DNA of 62,642 nucleotides, the filler included, from Stramenopiles sp. TOSAG23-2 (Eukaryota), in NCBI GenBank assembly GCA_900128395.1. It is 11 parts of 11 records of this genome, joined end to end, with 100 filler letters (N's around TTAATTAATTAA, not from the genome) between each part and the next. Parts side by side here need not be neighbours in the genome. Positions count along the whole stretch, not along the records: positions 40,416 to 48,376 come from LT650255.1; positions 48,477 to 56,432 come from LT650256.1; 9 more parts are not named here. One strand, 5' to 3'. Positions 3 through 56,432 of this stretch are shown here, one piece after another. The translations under genes and the position numbers were made by a program. The notes under the pieces are model-generated. The model was not told the DNA's origin and searched no databases. It saw only the letters and a program-made list of their open reading frames with translations. The first letter of the stretch is position 1. Every line of letters begins with the position of its first letter.

Positions 3-917
3 GCAAATGTTGCAAAAAGTGACAAAGCACCTGTTTCTAGCGGTAAAGAAAACGGAGGAAAGCCAATGAAAGCGAATGGACAACAAGGAAAAAAACCAGA
101 GGGAAAAGCTGCAGCAGAGAAAGGCGGGGCAAACAACAATGGTGCACAGCAACAAAAACAACAAAATGGCGCAAAGAAAAATGCTGATGGTGGCAATGGC
201 AAAGGCAACCCATCAGCAAAACAAGCGGCACAAGCAAAGCCACCACCTGGTCCACCAAAACCAAAGACATGGGCATCTCTTGCAAAATCCAACGCGGAAG
301 TACCTGTGAAAGAGAATCCAAGTGTGCGCCGTCCAAGCCTTGGTAGCAAAGGGCAAGATGGCAAGAAAAAAGCTTCAAGTGGTGGTGGCGACAAAAAAGA
401 TGATGGAAAATCTGGAGGAAAGAAAAAATCGAACGATCAAGGCAAAAAGGATAAAAACAATGGTACCAAGCAGAAGCAATCTACTGATACGATATTGTTT
501 GTAAAAAATATTGACCCTGATGCAACGGTAAAAGAATTGAAGGACCTCTTCAATAAATTTGGAAATGTAAAGAATGTTGATCAATTGAAACGAAAACCAA
601 CACAAGAAAAAGGTACTGCGTATGTTGGCTTCAACTCTCCAAAATCACTTGAAAGAGCGTTAGATGAAACGAAAGGTACAATGATGTTTAAAGGTCAACC
701 AATCAATATCGAAGCAGCAAAAGCATCTGTACAAGCGGCAGCTCAGAAAAAAAGTGGTGGCAATCGTGGTGGTCGTGGAAGAGGAGGTAAAAACAAGGAT
801 AAGAATAGACGTGGAACGAAAGGTAATAATAATGATAATAAAAGCAACGGCAAAAATAATAATAATAGGTCTCGTAATAATAATAATAGCAATGGTAGTA
901 ATAAAAATCGAAAATAA
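3..917 (+). CDS. G3BP/Rasputin-like RNA-binding protein, C-terminal part (low-complexity linker, RRM, RGG tail); 5' partial
   Basis: Frame is open from position 3 into the 66..917 ORF. It has PKPKTWASLA (typical of G3BP/NTF2-family linkers), an RRM (RNP2 LFVKNI, RNP1 KGTAYVGF) and an RGG-rich tail. The expected NTF2 domain would lie off-contig. Confidence 0.62.
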   Translation, partial: ANVAKSDKAPVSSGKENGGKPMKANGQQGKKPEGKAAAEKGGANNNGAQQQKQQNGAKKNADGGNGKGNPSAKQAAQAKPPPGPPKPKTWASLAKSNAEVPVKENPSVRRPSLGSKGQDGKKKASSGGGDKKDDGKSGGKKKSNDQGKKDKNNGTKQKQSTDTILFVKNIDPDATVKELKDLFNKFGNVKNVDQLKRKPTQEKGTAYVGFNSPKSLERALDETKGTMMFKGQPINIEAAKASVQAAAQKKSGGNRGGRGRGGKNKDKNRRGTKGNNNDNKSNGKNNNNRSRNNNNSNGSNKNRK

Positions 918-1563
918 AAAGATATACTGCTGTGTGACATGTGAAACATCAACAGAACGATATATATTTATATTATTATACCACACGAAAAATATTATTA
1001 ATATATGCATTATGTATAAGATCTGCATACATAAACATTATATGTTGTGCCGACGGGTACATGTTGATATATATATATACATATATAACGATATTATTTT
1101 ATATTTGATATATTTATGATAAGCACATAATAAAAAAGTAAAAAAAAGTAAAAGTGACAAATATACACGACAAAGAGAAAAAGGGTGTGTACATATATTA
1201 TTTATGCGAGGATTGAAAGATTTTTGAATTTAAAATACTTAAAAGTTAGAAGTGGGAGAATGTGAACTGATTTGGTGGAGGAAAGAGAGAGTTAATGTTT
1301 AAAAAAATGTGTTTTTTCAAAAGCTGAGAAGAATATTTTTTATTTTTTTTCATACTTTTATTTAATATTTTAAAATACAATCATTAATGATAAACAAAGC
1401 TCTACACATATACACTTTTCTTTCTTCAACAAAAAAAAATATTTGTTTACACATGTGCGCACACCAGGCACACTCTCATCATAGAAATATTGTATATATC
1501 GATATATACGAGAGCATGTATTACGAGAAGTGTACGTGTGGTAAGGGTATTTTTTAATCACGG

Positions 1564-1611
1564 GAGAAGTAAAAATTGTTTTATAACACACTTTTAGATT
1601 TTTAACCATCA
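1564..1611. repeat. Copy of dispersed ~50-bp intergenic repeat (GAGAAGT..AAAAAT..TATAAC..TAGATTTT(T)AACCATC)
   Basis: Similar to 10489-10534 and 10679-10722, and to the reverse complement at 10428-10455, on a different contig. Confidence 0.6.
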
Positions 1612-1677
1612 TTTAATTTTTATTTTTTTTTTAAAATCATTAAAATACATACGTAATATCATTTTTATACTATCATT

Positions 1678-3213
1678 TTAATACTCCACGCCATATTTTG
1701 CACGGTATGCTTCAATACTTGGTAAAAAATTTGACATTTCATCACTTGATTTAGCATATGATAATAAATCATCTAGACGTACTACATTTAATACAGGAAT
1801 ATCATATTGTTCTTGTACTGTCTGTATTGCTGATTGTGTACTTGTATCATTAACTTTTTCTTGTCGATCCAAGGCAATTATTACACCACTTGCAGTTCCT
1901 CCACCAGCATTTAACATCGTCATAGCTTCACGTATTGCTGTACCAGCAGTTATTACATCATCGATAATCAAAACTTTTTTACCTTTAATTGGTGCACCAA
2001 CTAATTTACCACCTTCGCCATGATCTTTTTTTTCTTTACGATTATATGCATATGGAATATCCATACCATAATCACATAATGCAATAGATACAGCGCTGGC
2101 AAGGGTAATACCTTTATATGCCGGGCCAAATAAAACATCAAACTTTACGCCACTGTTTACTATCACTTTTGCATAATATTCCCCTACACGTTTTAATGCT
2201 AGGCCAGAGTTAAATAATCCAGCATTAAAAAAATATGGAGATATTCTACCACTTTTCAATGTAAATTCGCCAAATTTTAATACTTTACATTTCAATGCAA
2301 ATTGTATAAATTCTGTTTGGTACTTTTGTAAACTACTGGTCTTACTATCGTTATTATTGTTATTCAATAATGCAAGACTTTTCTCTCTTGCTTCATTAAT
2401 ATCTTTATTCAATTTTTCTGCTGCTTCTTTTGGATTTTCAGCACGTGAAATACCACGTGATACCGGTACTAATAATCCCATACCATCCGATTTTCGCAAA
2501 CCAGCAGTAACCGCCTCTACTAAATTACCGCCCTGTGCCCCGATTCCAGGCGCTAATATCCAAAGTCCAGGTGCAGCTGCACGTACACGTGTCAACGCAT
2601 TGACATCCGTAGCACCAACAACAACACCTACGTTATCTTTTGTATTCCATGATTCACAAAGTGAAGCAACGCATTCAAACACTGCGTTCCCGTTGTTTAA
2701 AATGCATTCTTGCAAATCTTTGGAGCTAGGATTCGATGTTTTACATATCACAAAAGCACCTTTTGAGCCATCTTTAATAAATGGATTAATTGATTCTGAA
2801 CCCATATATGGACTTAATGTAACAGCATCTGCTTTTAAGGATTCATATGCAGCATCTGCATATGCCGTTGCAGTAGAACCAATATCACCGCGTTTTATAT
2901 CTAATAAAACAGGAATTTCATCGGGTACATATTGAATTAATTTTTCCAACGCTTCAACGCCGCTTCCTCCAAATGCCTCAAAAAAGGCGGCATTGGGTTT
3001 GTATGACACAGCAATATGTTTCGTTTGATCCACAATATTTTTACAAAAGGTAAATGCACCATTGGCAGTCACATCTCCTAATTTTTCCAAATCAATACGA
3101 TGTGGGTCTAAACCAACACATAATAATGAATTCACTTCGTTACAACGTTTTGTTAATCTTGTAAAAAATGATGCTGTTGATGTATCATTGTTCTCACTTG
3201 CAATGTTAGACAT
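1678..3213 (-). CDS. UMPS: Bifunctional UMP synthase with reversed domain order (OMP decarboxylase N-terminal, orotate phosphoribosyltransferase C-terminal)
   Basis: OMPDC motifs LCVGLDP, YKPNAAFF, LDIKRGDIGST, LAPGIGAQGG, VPVSRGI. OPRT motifs FGEFTLKSGRISPYFFN, GPAYKGI, YNRKEKKDHGEGG, LIIDDVITAGTA. Confidence 0.96.
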   Translation of the reverse strand: MSNIASENNDTSTASFFTRLTKRCNEVNSLLCVGLDPHRIDLEKLGDVTANGAFTFCKNIVDQTKHIAVSYKPNAAFFEAFGGSGVEALEKLIQYVPDEIPVLLDIKRGDIGSTATAYADAAYESLKADAVTLSPYMGSESINPFIKDGSKGAFVICKTSNPSSKDLQECILNNGNAVFECVASLCESWNTKDNVGVVVGATDVNALTRVRAAAPGLWILAPGIGAQGGNLVEAVTAGLRKSDGMGLLVPVSRGISRAENPKEAAEKLNKDINEAREKSLALLNNNNNDSKTSSLQKYQTEFIQFALKCKVLKFGEFTLKSGRISPYFFNAGLFNSGLALKRVGEYYAKVIVNSGVKFDVLFGPAYKGITLASAVSIALCDYGMDIPYAYNRKEKKDHGEGGKLVGAPIKGKKVLIIDDVITAGTAIREAMTMLNAGGGTASGVIIALDRQEKVNDTSTQSAIQTVQEQYDIPVLNVVRLDDLLSYAKSSDEMSNFLPSIEAYRAKYGVEY

Positions 3214-3771
3214 GATGTTAATAGTATGGCGTTAATATTGATAATATGTATATATTCTATTTGTTTCTCCTATATTTGTTGTACCTGTACTATATCTTAT
3301 AAACTAATATATAAAAGGCACTATTATAAAAAGATATAATATTTTTTGTTGTTGTCCAACTTTGTTGTTGTTGTTGTTTGCTGGTTTGCTGGTTTGGGCG
3401 AGAATGGAATATTTTCATTTTTCATCAGATTTTTACATATATCATCATCTATTTATTGGAATTTTGATGATATTTTTTCCAATGTATAGTTTCTATTATT
3501 ATCTATAAATTATATCATAATATATTCGGATATTGTATATTTTATAAAATTAATAAATACAATAATTGTCATTTTGGAACTTCCGATTGAGGAACAAAAC
3601 AAAACAACATTCGGAGGGACTATATAAAAAGAAGGGGAATATTGGCTTGATATATATTCAATATATATCAGATTAAAACATGATTGAGAGAGTCACACTG
3701 TGATGTGTACAGTGTGAAGAGACAACAGTTGAACAGGTAACATACAAAGAGAGATAACATTGTTGAACAGG

Positions 3772-48078: not shown

Positions 48079-48477
48079 TCCTAGCGGGCTAGTTATAAAT
48101 ATATTAGAGCAGCAAAAGCAAGGAACAAGAAAGAGAGAGATTGTGAATCTTCTTTTTTTTTTTTTTCTTTTTCGATTTAGTACTTGACTTTAATTTTTTC
48201 TTTTTTCTTTTTTTCTTTTTGTAAAAGATCATTTTGGAATATATATATATATATATTTCATATCTATATTGCAGATCCTTCATTATATATATATATCTAC
48301 CCTGAGTTTCTCTTGTACGAAAATATACTACATTTTTCGGATATTTATTTTTAGTGGAACTCAGAATATTGCCAAANNNNNNNNNNNNNNNNNNNNNNNN
48401 NNNNNNNNNNNNNNNNNNNNTTAATTAATTAANNNNNNNNNNNNNNNNNNNNNNNNNNNNNNNNNNNNNNNNNNNNT

Positions 48478-48606
48478 TTTGGACGGTGGAATAGACACTA
48501 TAATTACACTGGTGATGTAAATTACACTGATGATGAAATTGACAGATTACAGTACTGCACTAGATATGGAACTGATAGTGATGAAAGTGATGAAGATGAT
48601 ATGTAA
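48478..48606 (+). CDS. C-terminal fragment of a viral ORF with an acidic tail, 5' partial
   Basis: FGRWNRHYNYTGDVNYTDDEIDRLQYCTRYGTDSDESDEDDM*, open from the contig start. Confidence 0.6.
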   Translation, partial: FGRWNRHYNYTGDVNYTDDEIDRLQYCTRYGTDSDESDEDDM

Positions 48607-48637
48607 ATTTTATAAGATTAATATTTTATGAAATTTA
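48604..48637 (+). terminator. 3'-end hairpin (15-bp stem including two G-U pairs, 4-nt loop) starting at the stop codon
   Basis: TAAATTTTATAAGAT-taat-ATTTTATGAAATTTA. Confidence 0.5.
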
Positions 48638-48689
48638 TTTTAGGCAAATCTAATTTAGAAAAAAAATGTTGTGGTATATATATACTGAA

Positions 48690-51600
48690 ATGGTAAAAAA
48701 ACCTAAAGTAAGTAAAAGTATGTCTCTTCCAGATATTTTCTTAAAATATTTAGCGAAGAAGTTAGTTGCGTTCGAACGAATTGATAGAAATGGAATAGCG
48801 TGGTTTAAAAAACGACACGAGAAAGGGTGTACGGGTGGAACATCATGCACAGGATGTTATAAACCGTTCACTATGCTTCACGAAATTTTAAAAAGAAAAA
48901 AATACAAAGATTATCTCCTAGTAAAAAATGAAACGTGGAAATTTGGAATAGTTAAGCGAAGTGATTTAAAAAAAATATTAAAAACGAAAAAAAATTATTA
49001 TATGCTAGAAGTTATACATGCGGAATATCCTAGAAGGCTGTATATCGATATTGATGGGAAAAAAGACTGCTTAGATAATGCAGTTAAAGTTATGAAGGAA
49101 CTATTGGGAGAAGATGTAAGAATGGCGATTAGTGGAAGTAAAGGAATAAAAAATAAATCTAAATTTTATTCCTATCATATCGTTTTTCCTGATATAGTTT
49201 TTAAAGATTTACAGCAAATGCTAGATTCTGGAATGGTAAATTACATTAAGCATATAACAAAAGGAAAAGAGCATGTAGAACAAGATGATTATAATGGAAT
49301 TGATGATGGAATATATAAGAAAAATCAAGCCTTTAAACTTATATTTCAGAAAAAGAAAAAAGGCGAAGGAGACGACCGTATACAGAAAATAATCAAAGAT
49401 AACAAAATAGAGAATCATATTGTTCAACTTTTACCTTCAGCATCATATCCAGAATTAGATAAAGCATTATTAGAAAAATTAAAACCTTATCAACCTGACT
49501 TCCAAATGGATAGGGAAACGAAAAAAATTGTTCGAGTAAAAGGAGAAAAAAAGAAATATGCACCAAAAGGAAAAAAAATAGAAAAATTAAAAAATGAAGT
49601 TGCTCCTAAGATAAATATAAAAAAATGCTCCCCAGAAGAATTACTGTTCACTATACCAAACACGAAACCAGAACACCATTTAGGACGAGAAAATCACTGG
49701 AAAATAGGTTTATGGTTTTACCATCAGACTAGTGGATTAGGATATGAGAAATATAGAGAATGGGAAAGACGACATTATAAGAATGATGATAAAAACCCGT
49801 ACACCACAGTAGCGAGTTGGAATAATTATAAAAATACAAAATGTTTAGTAAAAAGATATCATATAGAAAACATAATACAGAAATTTTATGGATTTATAAA
49901 TAAACCAGCAGTAGTTGATTTTTTGGAAACGGTGTTTAAAGGAGATGAACATGACAGGTTAATAAATCAAAAATTTATCAGTCCTTCACATTTCGATTAT
50001 AGTAAAAAAGTTCAATTAGTAAAAGCAGGAATGGGGAGTGGAAAAACTTATGGGGTGATAGAAGAACTAATTAAATTCTGTTCTGAAAATCCAGATTTGA
50101 AAATATTATGGATTACCAATCGTGTCAGTATGGCTAATAATATAATGGGAAGATTAAATGGTGATAATTGTAAAATGAGAAATCGAATAAACAACTTGTA
50201 TATTAAAGAGCAACATAATAAACTGATACGACAAAGAATAAGAAATGGTAATTCTATATCAAAATATTTTAAAAAAAGGGATAAAGCAGAAATGAGTGAT
50301 ATTGAAAAAAAATATTATGAAGAATTAAAAAATAAGAACCAACAAAATCGAGATTTAAATTTTACTCATTACAAAGAAGTAGTACGAGAAAATGCTAAAA
50401 TTCAAAAAGAATTAAATGGCGATGGAAATTATGGCACATCAAATAAATATCTCATGCAGCAGGAGAAACGGTTAGTATGCGAAGTGGAATCATTACATTA
50501 TACCGATGAGGTAAAATATGATATCGTAGTTATAGATGAATTAGAATCTGTTTACCATAGTTTTTTATCAGATACTTGTCATAAGGGAAGCGGTAAAAAC
50601 AATTATATATCAAACTATATGGCTTTTAGAAATCATATATTAAAAGCGGATAAAGTTTTTATCATGGATGCGTACCTTCATAAAAGAACACTGAAATATT
50701 TAAGTCTTTTAGATAATGATATGAAACAAAATCTTATTATGAGAGCAGATAAATATGATTTAGAAAACAAAGAAGTAAGAAAATTAGAGGCGAATAACTG
50801 GATTCGCAATATTGTAAATGATTTAAAAAACGGTTTAAAACTGTATATATTTTATCCATATAAAACTGGAAAAGGAAGTTTATGGAATTTATCAATAGAG
50901 AATTTTAAGAATAAGATAATGGCGATGAGCGACTTATCGAATAATGATTTTAGAGTTTATCATGGCGAAACAGACAGTGAAGTTCGTCGAAAATTAGAAA
51001 ATGTGAATGAAGAGTGGAAACAGGCAAAATGTATAATCACAAATAGCAGTATAACTGTGGGAGTAAATTATGATAACAAAAATGATTTTGATAAATGTTA
51101 TTTATCTTATGCTGATTTTATATTACCTAGAGATATTATACAGACTAGTTTAAGAGTACGAAATTTCAAATATAGAAATAAGAAAAATGAAGATGTTATT
51201 TTCTTATGTAAATTTCCTAGTTATAGAGTAAAGAATGGTGAATATTTAAATCCTGTTAGACTTATGAATATTGATATAGTAGATGATGAATTAACGCCAG
51301 TAGAGTTAAAGGAATTTAATTATATGAAGAAATTTTTAACTGATGAATATGACGCAAAATGCTTTCAGAGCGTAGTGGAATTTATGATAATGTCTGGGTA
51401 CAGAATCACAACTGAAAGTGGAGATAAGGAGTTGATAAAAAAATTTAAGGAAGATTTTAAAAATGCCACTTTTGGAGCGGAAGATTTATGGGCGTATGAT
51501 AACATAAAAGCAATTAAGGAAGAGGAGAAAGATATAAAAGAGGAAAGGATAAAACTAGATTATAAAGCATCTACAGATGATAAACTTGAAGTGAGAAAAT

Positions 51601-52400
51601 GGTATGTTGATAATATGTGTTATGTAAAAGCAGATACTCAAATATCAGATTCTTCGTTGAGATTTATTAATAATTATTATTTAGACTTAAATAAAAAAAA
51701 AGTTGAAAAAGATATTAAAAAATTAAAAAAGAACTGTAAACAGAAAGCAAATAAAGCAAAATGTAAATCAGATAAACATAGAGAAATATATTATGATAAA
51801 TTGTTTGCTGCCGCCATAGACAATTACAACAAAAAGAAAAAAGAACCGTTTGCAGCAGGAGAATTAAATAGACGATTATGGGAGAAACCTAGATTTTTCG
51901 AAGGTTTAAAAACCTACTTTTATGGAAATCGGGAATCGCACAAATTATTACATTTAGCACTTACTTACTGGAATGGAATAGGTGAAAATGATTATTATGT
52001 AGAAGAAGAAAATATAAATGTAAATAAACGCTTTTTTTATAACAGTAAAAAGTTAACAGAAGAGGATAGGATATTTATATGTGAACAACTTCATATTGAT
52101 TATGAATTAAAAGAAAAAGAAATATTTTTAAAACAGAAAGATTATTTACTAAAAAGATATATATTAAAAGAAGCGTTTGGTTGTCATGTTATAGAACAGA
52201 ATAATAAAGGCAAAGTCATATTATCAGACCCAGAATTACTAGGAATGTGTTTAGTAGAATTAAAATTATGTTGTGAAAATAATAAATTAAATTTTACAGA
52301 TGAAGAAATTAGACAGATGGACGAACAGAAAAAAATGGATAAACTATTTACAAGCGGCAAATGTCTTATTTTAGATAGAGAAGATTGTGAAAATTATTAA
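48690..52400 (+). CDS. AEP (PrimPol-like) primase-polymerase fused to a PriCT-like domain and a UL9/origin-binding-protein-like superfamily 2 helicase
   Basis: AEP motif I PRRLYIDID, II SYHIVF, III IDDGIYKKNQAFKL. PriCT-2-like HWKIG..F....G...YREW. SF2 motifs KAGMGSGKT, WITNRVSMA, CEVESL, VVIDELES, MDAYL, TNSSITVGVNYD, QTSLRVR. Likely start ATG 48690. Confidence 0.88.
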   Translation: MVKKPKVSKSMSLPDIFLKYLAKKLVAFERIDRNGIAWFKKRHEKGCTGGTSCTGCYKPFTMLHEILKRKKYKDYLLVKNETWKFGIVKRSDLKKILKTKKNYYMLEVIHAEYPRRLYIDIDGKKDCLDNAVKVMKELLGEDVRMAISGSKGIKNKSKFYSYHIVFPDIVFKDLQQMLDSGMVNYIKHITKGKEHVEQDDYNGIDDGIYKKNQAFKLIFQKKKKGEGDDRIQKIIKDNKIENHIVQLLPSASYPELDKALLEKLKPYQPDFQMDRETKKIVRVKGEKKKYAPKGKKIEKLKNEVAPKINIKKCSPEELLFTIPNTKPEHHLGRENHWKIGLWFYHQTSGLGYEKYREWERRHYKNDDKNPYTTVASWNNYKNTKCLVKRYHIENIIQKFYGFINKPAVVDFLETVFKGDEHDRLINQKFISPSHFDYSKKVQLVKAGMGSGKTYGVIEELIKFCSENPDLKILWITNRVSMANNIMGRLNGDNCKMRNRINNLYIKEQHNKLIRQRIRNGNSISKYFKKRDKAEMSDIEKKYYEELKNKNQQNRDLNFTHYKEVVRENAKIQKELNGDGNYGTSNKYLMQQEKRLVCEVESLHYTDEVKYDIVVIDELESVYHSFLSDTCHKGSGKNNYISNYMAFRNHILKADKVFIMDAYLHKRTLKYLSLLDNDMKQNLIMRADKYDLENKEVRKLEANNWIRNIVNDLKNGLKLYIFYPYKTGKGSLWNLSIENFKNKIMAMSDLSNNDFRVYHGETDSEVRRKLENVNEEWKQAKCIITNSSITVGVNYDNKNDFDKCYLSYADFILPRDIIQTSLRVRNFKYRNKKNEDVIFLCKFPSYRVKNGEYLNPVRLMNIDIVDDELTPVELKEFNYMKKFLTDEYDAKCFQSVVEFMIMSGYRITTESGDKELIKKFKEDFKNATFGAEDLWAYDNIKAIKEEEKDIKEERIKLDYKASTDDKLEVRKWYVDNMCYVKADTQISDSSLRFINNYYLDLNKKKVEKDIKKLKKNCKQKANKAKCKSDKHREIYYDKLFAAAIDNYNKKKKEPFAAGELNRRLWEKPRFFEGLKTYFYGNRESHKLLHLALTYWNGIGENDYYVEEENINVNKRFFYNSKKLTEEDRIFICEQLHIDYELKEKEIFLKQKDYLLKRYILKEAFGCHVIEQNNKGKVILSDPELLGMCLVELKLCCENNKLNFTDEEIRQMDEQKKMDKLFTSGKCLILDREDCENY

Positions 52401-52431
52401 AAATATTTAACTAAATAAATTAAATATTTTT
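52399..52431. terminator. Hairpin (12-bp perfect stem, 9-nt loop) between convergent primase-helicase and ATPase stop codons
   Basis: AAAAATATTTAA-ctaaataaa-TTAAATATTTTT fills almost all of the 34-bp intergenic gap. Confidence 0.55.
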
Positions 52432-52434
52432 TTA

Positions 52435-53121
52435 TTAGTCTAGTTCAATTTCATTAAAATTCTTTCGATAAATTAATGCCTTATGTTTTTCATCTGGAAC
52501 AATATGGAAAAAGTCATATTTCTTCTCTGTTGCTTTTTTAAATTTTCTTATCCATTCATCTTTTTCCAAACCCATTCCCAGTTCAGCATATAATAAATTC
52601 ACTTCTCTTTTTGATGGTACAGCAAACAGACTAATTACGGAGGTATTGATTCTGCATACTCTAGGACAATTAGACCATTTCTGGACGAGGCTCATTACGC
52701 TGCAATTTTTGTGTCTCGAACGAATCCAATATTCCACAATAGAATTTTGCTTTTCCATCATCATGTCATCAAACAACACGAGATTCTGACAATTCTCATT
52801 TAATTCATCTACAGGAACAACATCATTAATATCATTACTCATAAACAATATATCCTCACCTGTCTTTTCTTTTATTTTATCGAAAAAACTCTGAATCATT
52901 TGGAATTTAGGCTGACTGAGATGTTTAGAATAAATATATAATTTATCAAATGAAGCCATTTTAATAATGTAATAAACAGCCATATTAGTTTTTCCACTTC
53001 CAGAACTTCCTGAGATAATCCATCTAAATGGATGCTGCGGAAGCAGTTTGCTCTTGTTGCGGTATTTCTTACCAGCAGAAATGCGTTTTAAATTATCGCA
53101 GTTTTTAATATCCAATTTCAT
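52435..53121 (-). CDS. A32-like (FtsK/HerA superfamily) DNA packaging ATPase, Polinton/PLV type
   Basis: LLPQHPFRWIISGSSGSGKTN (Walker A), LVLFDDMM (Walker B), RSRHKNCSVMSLVQ (A32 RH..S....Q motif), PRVCRIN. About 230 aa. Likely start ATG 53121. Confidence 0.92.
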   Translation of the reverse strand: MKLDIKNCDNLKRISAGKKYRNKSKLLPQHPFRWIISGSSGSGKTNMAVYYIIKMASFDKLYIYSKHLSQPKFQMIQSFFDKIKEKTGEDILFMSNDINDVVPVDELNENCQNLVLFDDMMMEKQNSIVEYWIRSRHKNCSVMSLVQKWSNCPRVCRINTSVISLFAVPSKREVNLLYAELGMGLEKDEWIRKFKKATEKKYDFFHIVPDEKHKALIYRKNFNEIELD

Positions 53122-53223
53122 TTTATATATATCACTTAGAAAAAAAAAATCAAAATGTAAAAATGATTTAATCAAAAAATAAAAATGATAACTTCAAAAA
53201 ATATAATCTTTAGTAATAGTATA

Positions 53224-54333
53224 ATGAGTGTAGATTATCGAAAGATAGAATCGATAGATGACTTTAATAACTTAATTGACTCTTTTGTAGAGACAAGGAA
53301 AGCCCTAAAGCAGAAGGTGAAAGAAGACAGGGGAGAAACAGTCGCAACTTTACGAGTTGGAGAAAAACCTTTAACTAAATTAGAACAACAACAAGCACCA
53401 ACAGTGAAAGCAATTGAACGACTCCGTACTGATTTATCATCTTTAAAACAGAACCATAGCCACTGGGATTTATTTGAGAAATATGCTAATGCTCCAGATA
53501 AAAAAACATCAGAAGTCACCGCACGAAGAGAGCGAGGAAAGCCAATTTACAAAATTGGAGTGAACGGTACTGTAAATGTAGAAGATGTTCAGGATGATGT
53601 ATTTAGAGTGGTGAATCCTAAAACAGGTGAATCAATTGTAAAACAACTAACTCCTTCGTTAAGTCAACTGCTTTTTGTTCCATCTGGAAGTATTGAGTTT
53701 GATAAAATATCGAAAGATGCCCTTGTTAATTATTATGAAATAATGCAGTTTAGTGGAATTAATCCAAAATCAAATCGAAACAAAAAAATTAAATTAAGTA
53801 AAAAAGCATTTGATAAAGTATATGGAAAAGTGGAAACTAAGGAAGAAGCATTTACAACTCCCGTGAAACAACGACCTAGAAGAAGCAGTTTAACAGATTC
53901 TCAAATGAAAGATATTGAGTTTGCCATGCAGGATGCAGATGATGATGATACAGATGATGATACAGATGATGAGTCAGAAGAGGAACAAACTAAACTAGCA
54001 TCCTTAAGTGCAGTAAAAAATAGAAGAAGAAGAGGAAAAGGAATGCTTAAAAATAAAAAAATGACGAAACAACAGGTACTTCGAATTAATAGAGAAACGG
54101 CTAGAAGAATGCTGCAACAGGCAAAACCTAAAAAGAAAAGAAGTGGAACTGGTTTAATGACTATAGACGAAATGGTTAATAGACTCCACCTAATGACACA
54201 GAGCCAACATGCAGGTAATCTGTCATCCAACATGCAGGATGAAATGATGCAAATAATGGACACTTTATTAAAGAAAAAAGTTATCACTAAGAAACAGCAC
54301 AGAGTGTTATTTAAAAAATATATTGATTATTAA
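53224..54333 (+). CDS. Polinton/adintovirus-type uncharacterised protein with basic GxG sites and C-terminal RLxL..S..AGN motif
   Basis: RRRRGKGM, KRSGTGL, and MVNRLHLMTQSQHAGNLS..DEMMQIMDTLLKKKVI. I recall this C-terminal pattern from Maverick/Polinton hypothetical proteins (not searched). Likely start ATG 53224. Confidence 0.65.
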   Translation: MSVDYRKIESIDDFNNLIDSFVETRKALKQKVKEDRGETVATLRVGEKPLTKLEQQQAPTVKAIERLRTDLSSLKQNHSHWDLFEKYANAPDKKTSEVTARRERGKPIYKIGVNGTVNVEDVQDDVFRVVNPKTGESIVKQLTPSLSQLLFVPSGSIEFDKISKDALVNYYEIMQFSGINPKSNRNKKIKLSKKAFDKVYGKVETKEEAFTTPVKQRPRRSSLTDSQMKDIEFAMQDADDDDTDDDTDDESEEEQTKLASLSAVKNRRRRGKGMLKNKKMTKQQVLRINRETARRMLQQAKPKKKRSGTGLMTIDEMVNRLHLMTQSQHAGNLSSNMQDEMMQIMDTLLKKKVITKKQHRVLFKKYIDY

Positions 54334-54363
54334 TTTATTTAATATTTTATTGTATTATATTAA

Positions 54364-56432
54364 ATGAGTAATAAATTTCTAACATTAGACGAAGATGATA
54401 TTTTTGCACAACCAGAAATTACTAGGTCAAAATTAGGACTTGTTTTCGGACAGACGGTACAGTCTCATAGTTCCAAATTAGACAATATTAGTAATTTAAA
54501 TTTTGCTGATAATAAAATTCTTAAGGCTACTGGTACTAATACTTTTGAACTGATTAATATTAGTTCACATGGCACTAACGCCTTAAATTCAGATAGTGCT
54601 TTGTTAACTAGTGCTGCTTTAAGTAATTATGTGACTACTAGTGCTTTAACAACTACTCTGTCAGATTATTCTACTACCTCCAGTATAAACTCTACTTTAG
54701 CAGACTATGCTTTAACTAGTTCTGTCCCAACTAATAATAACCAATTGACCAATGGGGCTAATTTTATTACCAACACTACAGATGCTTTTTCCTACTTGAA
54801 TCTATCTGATAAACCCACTATTCCCACTAATAATAATGAACTAACTAATGGTTCTAACTTTATTACCAATACTACAGATGCCTTTTCCTATAATAACCTT
54901 AGTGGAAAACCCACTATTCCCACTAATAATAATGAACTAACTAATGGTTCTAACTTTATTACTAACACTACAGATGCTTTTTCCTATTCGAATCTATCTG
55001 ATAAACCCACCAATATCACAACTACAGATTCCGACCAAAATATTACTGGTAAAAAAACAATTCAAGATGAAATTGTGATAGACCAAAATAATTCTGGGGA
55101 ATTACAATTACATTTAAATAATGGTTTAGGACAAAATAAAATTACAAAATTAGTGGCTGTTCCACATGCATCAACTTCTTCTCCAATCACTTTATCCCTT
55201 CCATCTGTAAAAGCGGGTGCTAGTAGTGACCAGTTGGTCAGTTTAAATGCTGTCCAGACTATAACTGGAAAAACTATGGATTATAATTCCAATACATTTC
55301 AAAATTTTCCCACTCCAGAAATTACTGAATCCAGTACATCTACTTTAACAAATAAAACTATGGATTATAATTCCAATACATTTCAAAATTTTCCCACTCC
55401 AGATATTACTGCCTCCAGCACCTCCACTTTAACAAATAAAACTATGGATTATAATTCCAATACATTTCAGAATTTTCCATCAGGCGATGTGACAGCCTCG
55501 TCTACTGACACTTTTACAAATAAAACTATTAGTGGAAGCGATAACACTTTTTCCAATATTCCTTACAGCGTGTTAACAGGAACTCCTACAATCACTAATT
55601 ATGCTACAGCAAATAATACTTTTACTGGTTCACATAAAATCAATAATTATGATTTAAATAATAATGCGGAAATAGAATTTATGAGTTATTCTGCTGGTGT
55701 AAATAGTGCAGATAAATTAGTGTTGAGAAATAAAGCAGTTGGAGGTGGGGGATATTTTGCTATTCACCAAAACGATAGTGTAAATCCTGCTATTATGATT
55801 ATGGACGACACAAGTGTTTTTCTTCAAGGATTAAAAGTGGTTGGAGGAAAAGTAGGTGTAGGTGGTGTATTAGGAAATCCTGCTTATGTATTAGATTTAG
55901 AGGGGAAAATGGGTATTGAATATAATTTAGGTAATACTGCTCTATGTGCTTTTAAAAGTCTTACGACAACTTCGTATTCACAATATACAAGAGGTTTTGA
56001 ATTTCTAAATGCTAATGGAAATAGTATGATGTGTATTTTACATTATGGAACATCTTATACTGACCCTCGTGTAGGAATTGGTAGAACAAATCCATCTCAC
56101 CCATTAGATATATTTTGCCCCAGTAGTAGCGGGTGGCGTGTAGAGCGAACAGGTAAAAGTATAGACAGTAATTTAGGTATAGCAACTGGTAATTACACAT
56201 ATTTTAAACTGGGAGGAGGTAGTGTATTCCGTTCTGGTTCTGGGAGAAATAGCACCCTTGAAGGAACTTTATCTGTTAATGGTTCATCTGTTAGTAGTGA
56301 TAGACGAATAAAAAAAAATATAGTTGATGCAGATGCTAAAATAGCATTAGAAACACTAAAAAAAATTCCTTGTCGTGAATATGAATACAGAGATACAATA
56401 CATAAGTCAGGTAAAACCATAGGATTTATAGC
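54364..56432 (+). CDS. Virion fibre/spike-like protein with C-terminal peptidase S74 intramolecular chaperone, 3' partial
   Basis: S/T/N-rich. YxNLSxKPTIP and TLTNKT repeats, VGIGRTNPSHPLDI fibre repeats, and SSDRRIKKNI..ALE.LKKI...EY......GFIA (S74 signature). Confidence 0.85.
54727..55011 (+). repeat. Three 96-bp (32-aa) coding repeats in the fibre gene
   Basis: PTNNNxLTNGxNFITNTTDAFSYxNLSxKPTI starting at 54727, 54823 and 54919. Confidence 0.92.
55270..55530 (+). repeat. Three 84-bp (28-aa) coding repeats in the fibre gene
   Basis: KTMDYNSNTFQNFPxxxITxSSTxTxTN starting at 55270, 55354 and 55438. Confidence 0.92.

Follow-up and report, generated by a model that had tools for sequence, protein, structure and literature searches.

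What is the contig of 7956 bp that occupies exactly positions 48477-56432 of a 62,642-nucleotide stretch of DNA (hereafter the window) from the assembly of Stramenopiles sp. TOSAG23-2 (GCA_900128395.1), and does it belong to the protist or to a virus? The window consists of 11 contigs, seven of 7956-7997 bp and four of 1451-1453 bp, joined by N44-TTAATTAATTAA-N44 spacers, and because such spacers bound the contig in question (LT650256.1) on both sides, its neighbours in the window have no physical linkage to it. The contig has a GC content of 0.299 and a coding fraction of 0.977, both of its ends are cut inside genes, and its four complete or long open reading frames (ORFs) are all intact; they encode a primase-helicase, a packaging ATPase, a conserved protein of 382 aa and a repeat-rich fibre. 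We conclude that the contig is probably a fragment of a polinton-like virus (PLV) genome that was captured together with the DNA of a marine protist. PLVs are small double jelly-roll viruses of eukaryotes, within an assemblage that includes the virophages and polintons. The contig would represent roughly a third of such a linear or circular double-stranded DNA genome, the full size of which is an estimate.

The largest gene (48666-52400, + strand) encodes a protein of 1244 aa that matches the Pfam family Herpes_ori_bp (E = 1e-14, 54 bits against a cut-off of 20). A profile built from ten of its relatives matched only four sequences in the PDB, all of them the origin-binding protein (UL9) of herpes simplex virus 1 (HSV-1; E = 1.5e-5 to 2.4e-5), and judged by these profiles the C-terminal helicase (about residues 456-832, nt 50031-51161, + strand), with Walker A GMGSGKT and the DExx motif VIDELES, is a superfamily 2 (SF2) enzyme of the UL9-like type. 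The N-terminal domain (about residues 35-280, nt 48768-49505, + strand) carries the archaeo-eukaryotic primase (AEP) motifs D128/D130 (DxD), S169-Y170-H171 and D213, which are invariant in all 13 aligned relatives. An AlphaFold (AF2) model of residues 1-360 had a mean pLDDT of 68.5, with 80-94 in the core, and a Foldseek search of the PDB with the AEP domain returned 27 matches at E ≤ 1e-3. Human PrimPol (1.1e-8) ranked first, followed by the AEP domains of vaccinia virus (VACV) D5 and monkeypox virus (MPXV) E5, these top matches spanning E values of 1e-8 to 1e-6; the PrimPol of African swine fever virus (ASFV) and HSV-1 helicase-primase entries stood lower in the list (1.5e-4 to 2.9e-3). Direct hhalign comparison of the AEP alignment with the AEP protein of L002, a virus contig described below, revealed no similarity (E = 0.59), so the assignment is based on motifs and fold, which identify the N-terminal third of the protein as an AEP. 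Searching 5.8 billion proteins gave 5780 candidates, 24 of them homologues, and the 23 with a contig on record all lie on contigs of at most 28,727 bp. A K/R/N-rich insertion of ~60-70 aa separates the Walker A and Walker B motifs of the helicase (window 50580-50790, about residues 500-570; alignment columns 650-720); it is missing in all nine aligned homologues except P0030, which has a shorter one.

The second gene (52435-53121, - strand) encodes an ATPase of the A32/FtsK-HerA packaging type, 228 aa long from its ATG, with Walker A GSSGSGKT and Walker B LFDD, that matches Pfam Pox_A32 at E = 2.5e-9 (37.4 bits, cut-off 22.8). The frame is open upstream of the ATG at 53121 to a TTG at 53175; as near relatives are 228-239 aa long, the ATG fits as the start. 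All 26 homologues found at E ≤ 1e-3 among 161 candidates contain PF04665, the best being 97% identical. In PHROGs the ATPase gave only a weak match to 'terminase large subunit' (2.5e-7), with nothing useful for the other proteins, and tblastn with the ATPase against 50,697 phage records gave no match. Among more distant relatives, P0012-P0020 with the exception of P0014 and P0017 are 38-41% identical and come from ENA contigs of 0.35-1.4 Mb. Searching IMG/VR with the ATPase alignment added five distant loci (28-32%), and ten ORFs scanned from two of them (nine from L116, one from L115) gave no polymerase or integrase match. The same alignment also matched three GTDB genome contigs of 7-19 kb (L118, L119 and L120; 27-37%) from metagenome-assembled genomes labelled as bacteria; these contigs probably stem from small viruses of eukaryotes that were mis-binned with bacteria.

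The contig ends within a fibre gene (54364-56432, + strand) of at least 689 codons. Its product matches Peptidase_S74 from residue 645 (nt 56296) onwards (E = 3.5e-5, 24.5 bits against a cut-off of 22), and the match covers profile positions 1-45 of 58 because the contig end cuts the domain. Upstream of it, in-frame tandem repeats of 96 bp (three copies) and 84 bp (three copies) lie at 54725-55010 and 55270-55529. The best full-length relative among the matches listed, L033, is 31% identical over residues 92-689; at least 203 of the 600 matched stretches listed are relatives of the fibre, such repeats being widespread in viral contigs, and fibre-like ORFs are likewise borne by the PLV-like contigs L002 and L041. 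The viral organisation of the whole contig, the A32 packaging ATPase, the large primase-helicase and the chaperone-assisted fibre, all named in the initial annotation, are borne out by these results.

Relatives of the contig place these genes in a wider context. The primase-helicase alignment matched 127 stretches of metagenome contigs, corresponding to 25 loci, and 57 stretches in IMG/VR, corresponding to five loci on contigs of 14.5-23.5 kb, four of which were also recovered in the metagenome scan. The primase-helicases of two independent marine metagenome contigs, L008 and L009, are 86% identical and their ATPases 92% and 97% identical to those of the viral contig. Both share the order of primase-helicase (+) and ATPase (-), and L009 adds the start of the 382 aa gene, so that the succession primase-helicase, ATPase and 382 aa protein is conserved. 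A third contig, L010 (primase-helicase 62%), extends 2.5 kb further upstream, where it holds three ORFs, all lacking a Pfam match. Two gene models in EukProt also belong here: P0034 combines a helicase of the primase-helicase family with a fibre-like stretch, which over 116 aa shares 71% identity with the fibre of the contig, and P0055, named in the same style, is an ATPase in the cluster of L010. At least one further eukaryote data set therefore contains members of the virus group.

At 28-31% identity, the primase-helicase leads to a group of contigs of 22-23.5 kb (L003, L006 and L029, partly L007 and L028) with one common gene order: an ORF of 1300-1670 aa, one of 312 aa, the primase-helicase, three small ORFs, the ATPase, and then ORFs of ~500, 567-582, 442-480 and 456-492 aa. 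Their A32-family ATPase falls into the same BLAST cluster as that of the viral contig. In an Atlas feature search with the 582 aa ORF, Capsid_NCLDV clusters (named for the nucleocytoplasmic large DNA viruses, NCLDV) made up 6 of 30 matches, at 0.96, and its family comprises 494 representatives at E ≤ 1e-3 (HMMER). Pfam searches with 60 members of the family identified no capsid family, and the capsid-candidate profiles A2 and A3 had no significant match among PDB sequences. We modelled the protein from a 60-row alignment (pLDDT 81.5) and compared the model with known folds using Foldseek. Against BFVD it gave 135 matches at E ≤ 1e-3; NCLDV major capsid proteins (MCPs) led the list, virophage MCPs were its 26th and 29th entries and a TVS1 protein its 49th. 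Against the PDB it gave 155 at the same threshold, including SGIV, PBCV-1 Vp54, faustovirus and PRD1 P3. On the basis of this model, the 582 aa protein is assigned as a double jelly-roll capsid protein, and the relatives of the contig include small genomes that bear such a capsid gene. The ORFs of 480 and 456-492 aa that follow it are candidate minor capsid (penton) proteins. A further relative, L011 (primase-helicase 31%, Pox_A32 match at 4.2e-7), encodes a 490 aa protein that is possibly also a double jelly-roll capsid protein, as suggested by hhalign against the capsid profile (E = 6.8e-5, probability 64%). By analogy with these relatives, the virus of the contig would carry a comparable capsid module.

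We then placed the ATPase in a tree of 43 rows, comprising the viral contig, 17 ATPases from the loci and P0002-P0026 (P0001, a near-duplicate, was omitted), with a midpoint root only. The viral contig groups with L008, L009 and P0002-P0007 (98/89), and this clade is weakly joined to L001 and L002 (81/54). L002, a 17.4 kb IMG/VR contig, holds the nearest ATPase with a long context (40% identity); it encodes AEP_C962R/PriCT_2, a DUF5906/VapE protein (SF3-type helicase), a GIY-YIG nuclease, two S74 fibres, and one protein with weak PLA2-like and Peptidase_C5 (adenovirus protease, adenain-like, 5.7e-6) matches. An inverted repeat of 77 nt, 87% complementary, is found at L002:3370-3446 and L002:17336-17412, with one arm at the very end of the contig and the other internal, the latter adjoining a run of 21 bp tandem repeats in six copies (3136-3295). 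In L002 the genes for the AEP and the SF3 helicase (116-3157) lie outside the 14 kb bounded by this repeat, as if the replicase module were separate or inserted.

Several points weigh against the assignment of the contig to the PLVs. Within its 7956 bp there is no capsid, penton, protease or integrase gene and no terminal repeat, and its inverted repeats are at the level expected of AT-rich DNA. The closest relatives (ATPase identity of at least 52%) are on contigs of at most 9.6 kb, which leaves the genome size of the lineage unfixed. In the ATPase tree the 23 kb group forms a clade of its own (100/97), set off by a 98/90 branch from the larger group that includes the viral contig, so the capsid evidence comes from genomes that share the replicase and not from those with the closest ATPase. 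The integrase-like 312 aa ORF of the 23 kb group matches Phage_integrase at E = 2.4e-5 with 24.6 bits, under the cut-off of 27.1. The replicase by itself has no power to fix the class of virus, as AEPs joined to UL9-like SF2 helicases also occur in larger viruses: PMC11253617 describes them in mimivirus R8, ASFV pF1055L, ostreid herpesvirus (OsHV-1) and some Yaraviridae.

This last point bears directly on the possibility that the contig derives from a larger virus, either one of mriyavirus-like type with a genome of 35-45 kb or a giant member of the Nucleocytoviricota, which likewise have A32 ATPases, AEP-SF2 proteins and S74 fibres. The proteins of mimivirus R8, ASFV pF1055L, OsHV-1 and the subset of Yaraviridae with SF2_hel resemble ours in their N-terminal AEP, intact motifs and fused UL9-like SF2 helicase as described in PMC11253617; the genomes that encode them, however, range from 35 kb to over 1 Mb, whereas none of the 24 primase-helicase homologues lies on a contig longer than 28.7 kb (23 with a contig on record). 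In fold, the capsid protein of the relatives matches NCLDV capsid proteins best, but such matches are expected for any double jelly-roll protein, and although one relative of the fibre, L034, lies on a viral contig of 155 kb, fibre repeats of this kind are widespread in viral contigs, as the at least 203 relatives among 600 matched stretches listed illustrate. The 22-23.5 kb relatives are moreover compact, repeat one gene order, carry a recombinase-like gene and show no Pfam match to a DNA or RNA polymerase in the 21 ORFs scanned from the two longest of them, L003 and L006. PolB, VLTF3 and HUH endonuclease were likewise found neither in these ORFs nor in the contig, which is an incomplete genome. 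We consider an origin from a larger virus very improbable.

An endogenous PLV-like element, integrated in the chromosome of the protist and not derived from a virus particle, an episome or co-sorted DNA, is a more serious contender, though still an unlikely one. In its favour are the ATPase relatives (38-41%) on ENA contigs of 0.35-1.4 Mb, the family members among EukProt gene models (P0055 for the ATPase, P0034 for the helicase-fibre), the recombinase-like gene of the relatives and the GC content of 0.299, a value shared with the majority of the window's other contigs. Yet there is no host junction, as both contig ends lie inside viral genes (accordingly, the initial annotation had described integration as not shown), none of the four complete or long ORFs is disrupted, and integration is not shown for the relatives on the 0.35-1.4 Mb contigs either. 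Somewhat less probable again is a functional virophage, that is, a PLV whose replication requires co-infection of the cell by a giant virus. The lack of a polymerase match in the scanned genomes of the relatives would suit such a dependence, and one PLV, PgVV, is associated with a giant virus according to PMC4642659; a nuclear virus that uses the host polymerase, however, fits equally well. In addition, the mimivirus early-promoter octamer occurs 0 times in the contig, and the 20 ORFs scanned elsewhere in the window, few in number and from an assembly that is incomplete, included no giant-virus hallmark.

The PLV reading of the contig can be set against what is described for known systems. PMC4642659 defines PLVs by their MCP, minor capsid protein (mCP) and packaging ATPase, with genomes of 18-28 kb, and gives pPolB, TVpol-S3H and AEP-S3H as the replicases known by Yutin et al. 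2015. Terminal inverted repeats are frequent in PLV genomes. The contig shares with PLVs of the PgVV/TVS type an A32-type ATPase, a small compact genome class, a primase-helicase in place of a polymerase and a marine origin, and its relatives have a double jelly-roll capsid protein and a tyrosine-recombinase-like gene as well; it differs in that its replicase is an AEP joined to a UL9-like SF2 helicase instead of TVpol-S3H, AEP-S3H or pPolB, and in that its own capsid genes are not in the contig. Polintons/Mavericks and adintoviruses likewise have an A32-family ATPase, and a fibre and the double jelly-roll capsid class are expected in common, whereas the four ORFs of the contig, with about two thirds of the genome missing, have no Pfam match to pPolB, rve integrase or adenain. 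A further correspondence is with the AEP-SF2 replicases of 'polisuviruses', which, in 10.64898/2026.10.13.758929, show the same domain architecture and mosaic pattern as the contig; AEP-helicase fusions are common in such viruses according to this source, 'a sizable minority' being of the SF2 type. Our literature searches for this combination led only to that source and to the mriyavirus paper (PMC11253617).

These comparisons lead to a divided view of the initial annotation. Its statements that the contig is viral and of the PLV/virophage size class, and that its replication gene is not the protein-primed PolB, agree with our results, AEP-SF2 being found instead. Its suggestion that the gene combination may mark an undescribed PLV lineage is, by contrast, unsupported as stated, because AEP-SF2 replicases are already reported in such viruses in 10.64898/2026.10.13.758929; five IMG/VR contigs of 14.5-23.5 kb also carry the replicase. 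The Maverick/adintovirus likeness that it saw in the ATPase and the AGN protein likewise gains no support here: the 382 aa protein has four homologues and matches no family, and the nearest ATPases with usable context come from a PLV-like contig with AEP, SF3-type helicase and adenain-like protease matches. The contig adds a member to an already described virus group.

The ATPase tree and the relatives of the replicase together indicate that replicase and packaging ATPase have different nearest relatives, and a mosaic pattern of module relationships of this kind is described for such viruses in 10.64898/2026.10.13.758929. It is conceivable, if rather doubtful, that the contig together with L008, L009, L010 and P0001-P0007 represents a distinct PLV lineage, in which a morphogenetic module akin to that of the adenain-bearing L002 type is combined with an AEP-SF2 replicase from the recombinase-bearing 23 kb group and with a 382 aa protein of its own, and which truly infects or resides in the protist with which it was binned.

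A PLV with these genes might work as follows. The fusion of AEP primase and UL9-like SF2 helicase would open the viral DNA and lay primers, and DNA synthesis would probably be carried out by the DNA polymerase of the host or of a helper virus, a use that we infer to be likely because no polymerase match was found in the 21 scanned ORFs of L003 and L006. The A32-type ATPase would pump the genome into a preformed icosahedral capsid, built of a double jelly-roll MCP whose gene would lie in the part of the genome absent from the contig. The repeat-rich fibre would trimerise with the aid of its C-terminal S74 chaperone domain, which would then cleave itself off, and the mature fibre may mediate attachment.

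The protein of 382 aa (53185-54333, + strand) is the sole unexplained part of the contig, and it is conserved. It has four homologues at E ≤ 1e-3 among 3269 candidates. Conservation is seen in a core (residues 130-202) and in a C-terminal segment of helical appearance, which holds the GxG and HAGN motifs; the protein also has an acidic and a basic run. The GxG and AGN motifs pointed out in the initial annotation are real, as G321-x-G323 and H342-A343-G344-N345 are invariant in all five sequences, and they match no known family. The protein itself has no Pfam match, and scanning all five aligned members gave three families, each in one of the five, with a best E value of 0.0011. One weak PHROG match is to a group of unknown function; Atlas gave no match, a PDB profile search gave nothing below E = 0.49, and hhalign of the family against 47 gene clusters of related loci reached 0.038 at best. 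As P0051 and P0052 begin at M21, an alternative start at M21 (53245) is possible. We would guess that the protein is virion-internal or DNA-associated.

The remaining features of the contig are short. It begins with the 3' end of an ORF (48477-48606, + strand; 42 codons and a stop) that the contig start truncates; its tail is acidic, and it has been assigned no function. Its positional counterpart in L010 (1791-2441, 217 aa) is likewise acidic-tailed, and the alignment of the two is not significant (E = 0.12). In several relatives a conserved ORF lies just upstream of the primase-helicase (L010:1001-1726, with relatives at L003:8935-9438 and L022:3-440); it contains an NPPY motif, typical of N6-adenine DNA methyltransferases, and has no Pfam match. 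The primase-helicase and ATPase genes are convergent and 34 bp apart, and between them lies a perfect inverted repeat of 12 bp with a loop of 9 nt (52399-52431). It is identical in L008 and L009 and thus shows no covariation; with a folding z-score of -1.28 and 29 of 200 shuffles folding equally well, it may be a transcript-end hairpin, for which support is weak. The 382 aa gene is divergent from the ATPase gene, and in the short region between them a 22 bp unit is repeated 2.5 times (53148-53203, 82% matches), which could be promoter or iteron-like DNA. A search of the contig for the promoter motifs TCTA and AAAATTGA gave nothing interpretable, and Rfam had 0 matches in the entire window.

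On the other contigs of the window, the 20 scanned ORFs gave matches to cellular eukaryote families: S10 carboxypeptidase, UMP synthase, SLBP, MSS51, kinase and ankyrin. In the UMP synthase ORF (1681-3213, - strand) the OMP decarboxylase precedes the phosphoribosyltransferase, an inverted domain order. The GC content of the contig at 16194-24171 is 0.41, compared with 0.29-0.34 for the rest of the long contigs, and neither of its two long ORFs (989 and 679 aa) has a Pfam match. Words sampled from the sequence were present at a share of 0.99 in one sequencing run, which may be the source, at 0.23 in one seawater metagenome and at 0.05-0.15 in one metatranscriptome and eight viral or seawater metagenome runs; we place no weight on these shares and draw no claim on habitat, expression or virion fraction from any of the runs.

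The contig leaves the current picture of PLVs unchanged. It provides a clean example of module shuffling, with an ATPase and a replicase that have different nearest relatives, and its conserved 382 aa protein is worth a structure. PLVs are abundant in the sea and few of their hosts are known; the contig was co-assembled with the DNA of one protist, and this link, which comes from binning alone, is a lead to a host only. If the distinct lineage outlined above were real and truly infected or resided in this protist, it would add to the few cases in which a marine PLV is linked directly to a host.

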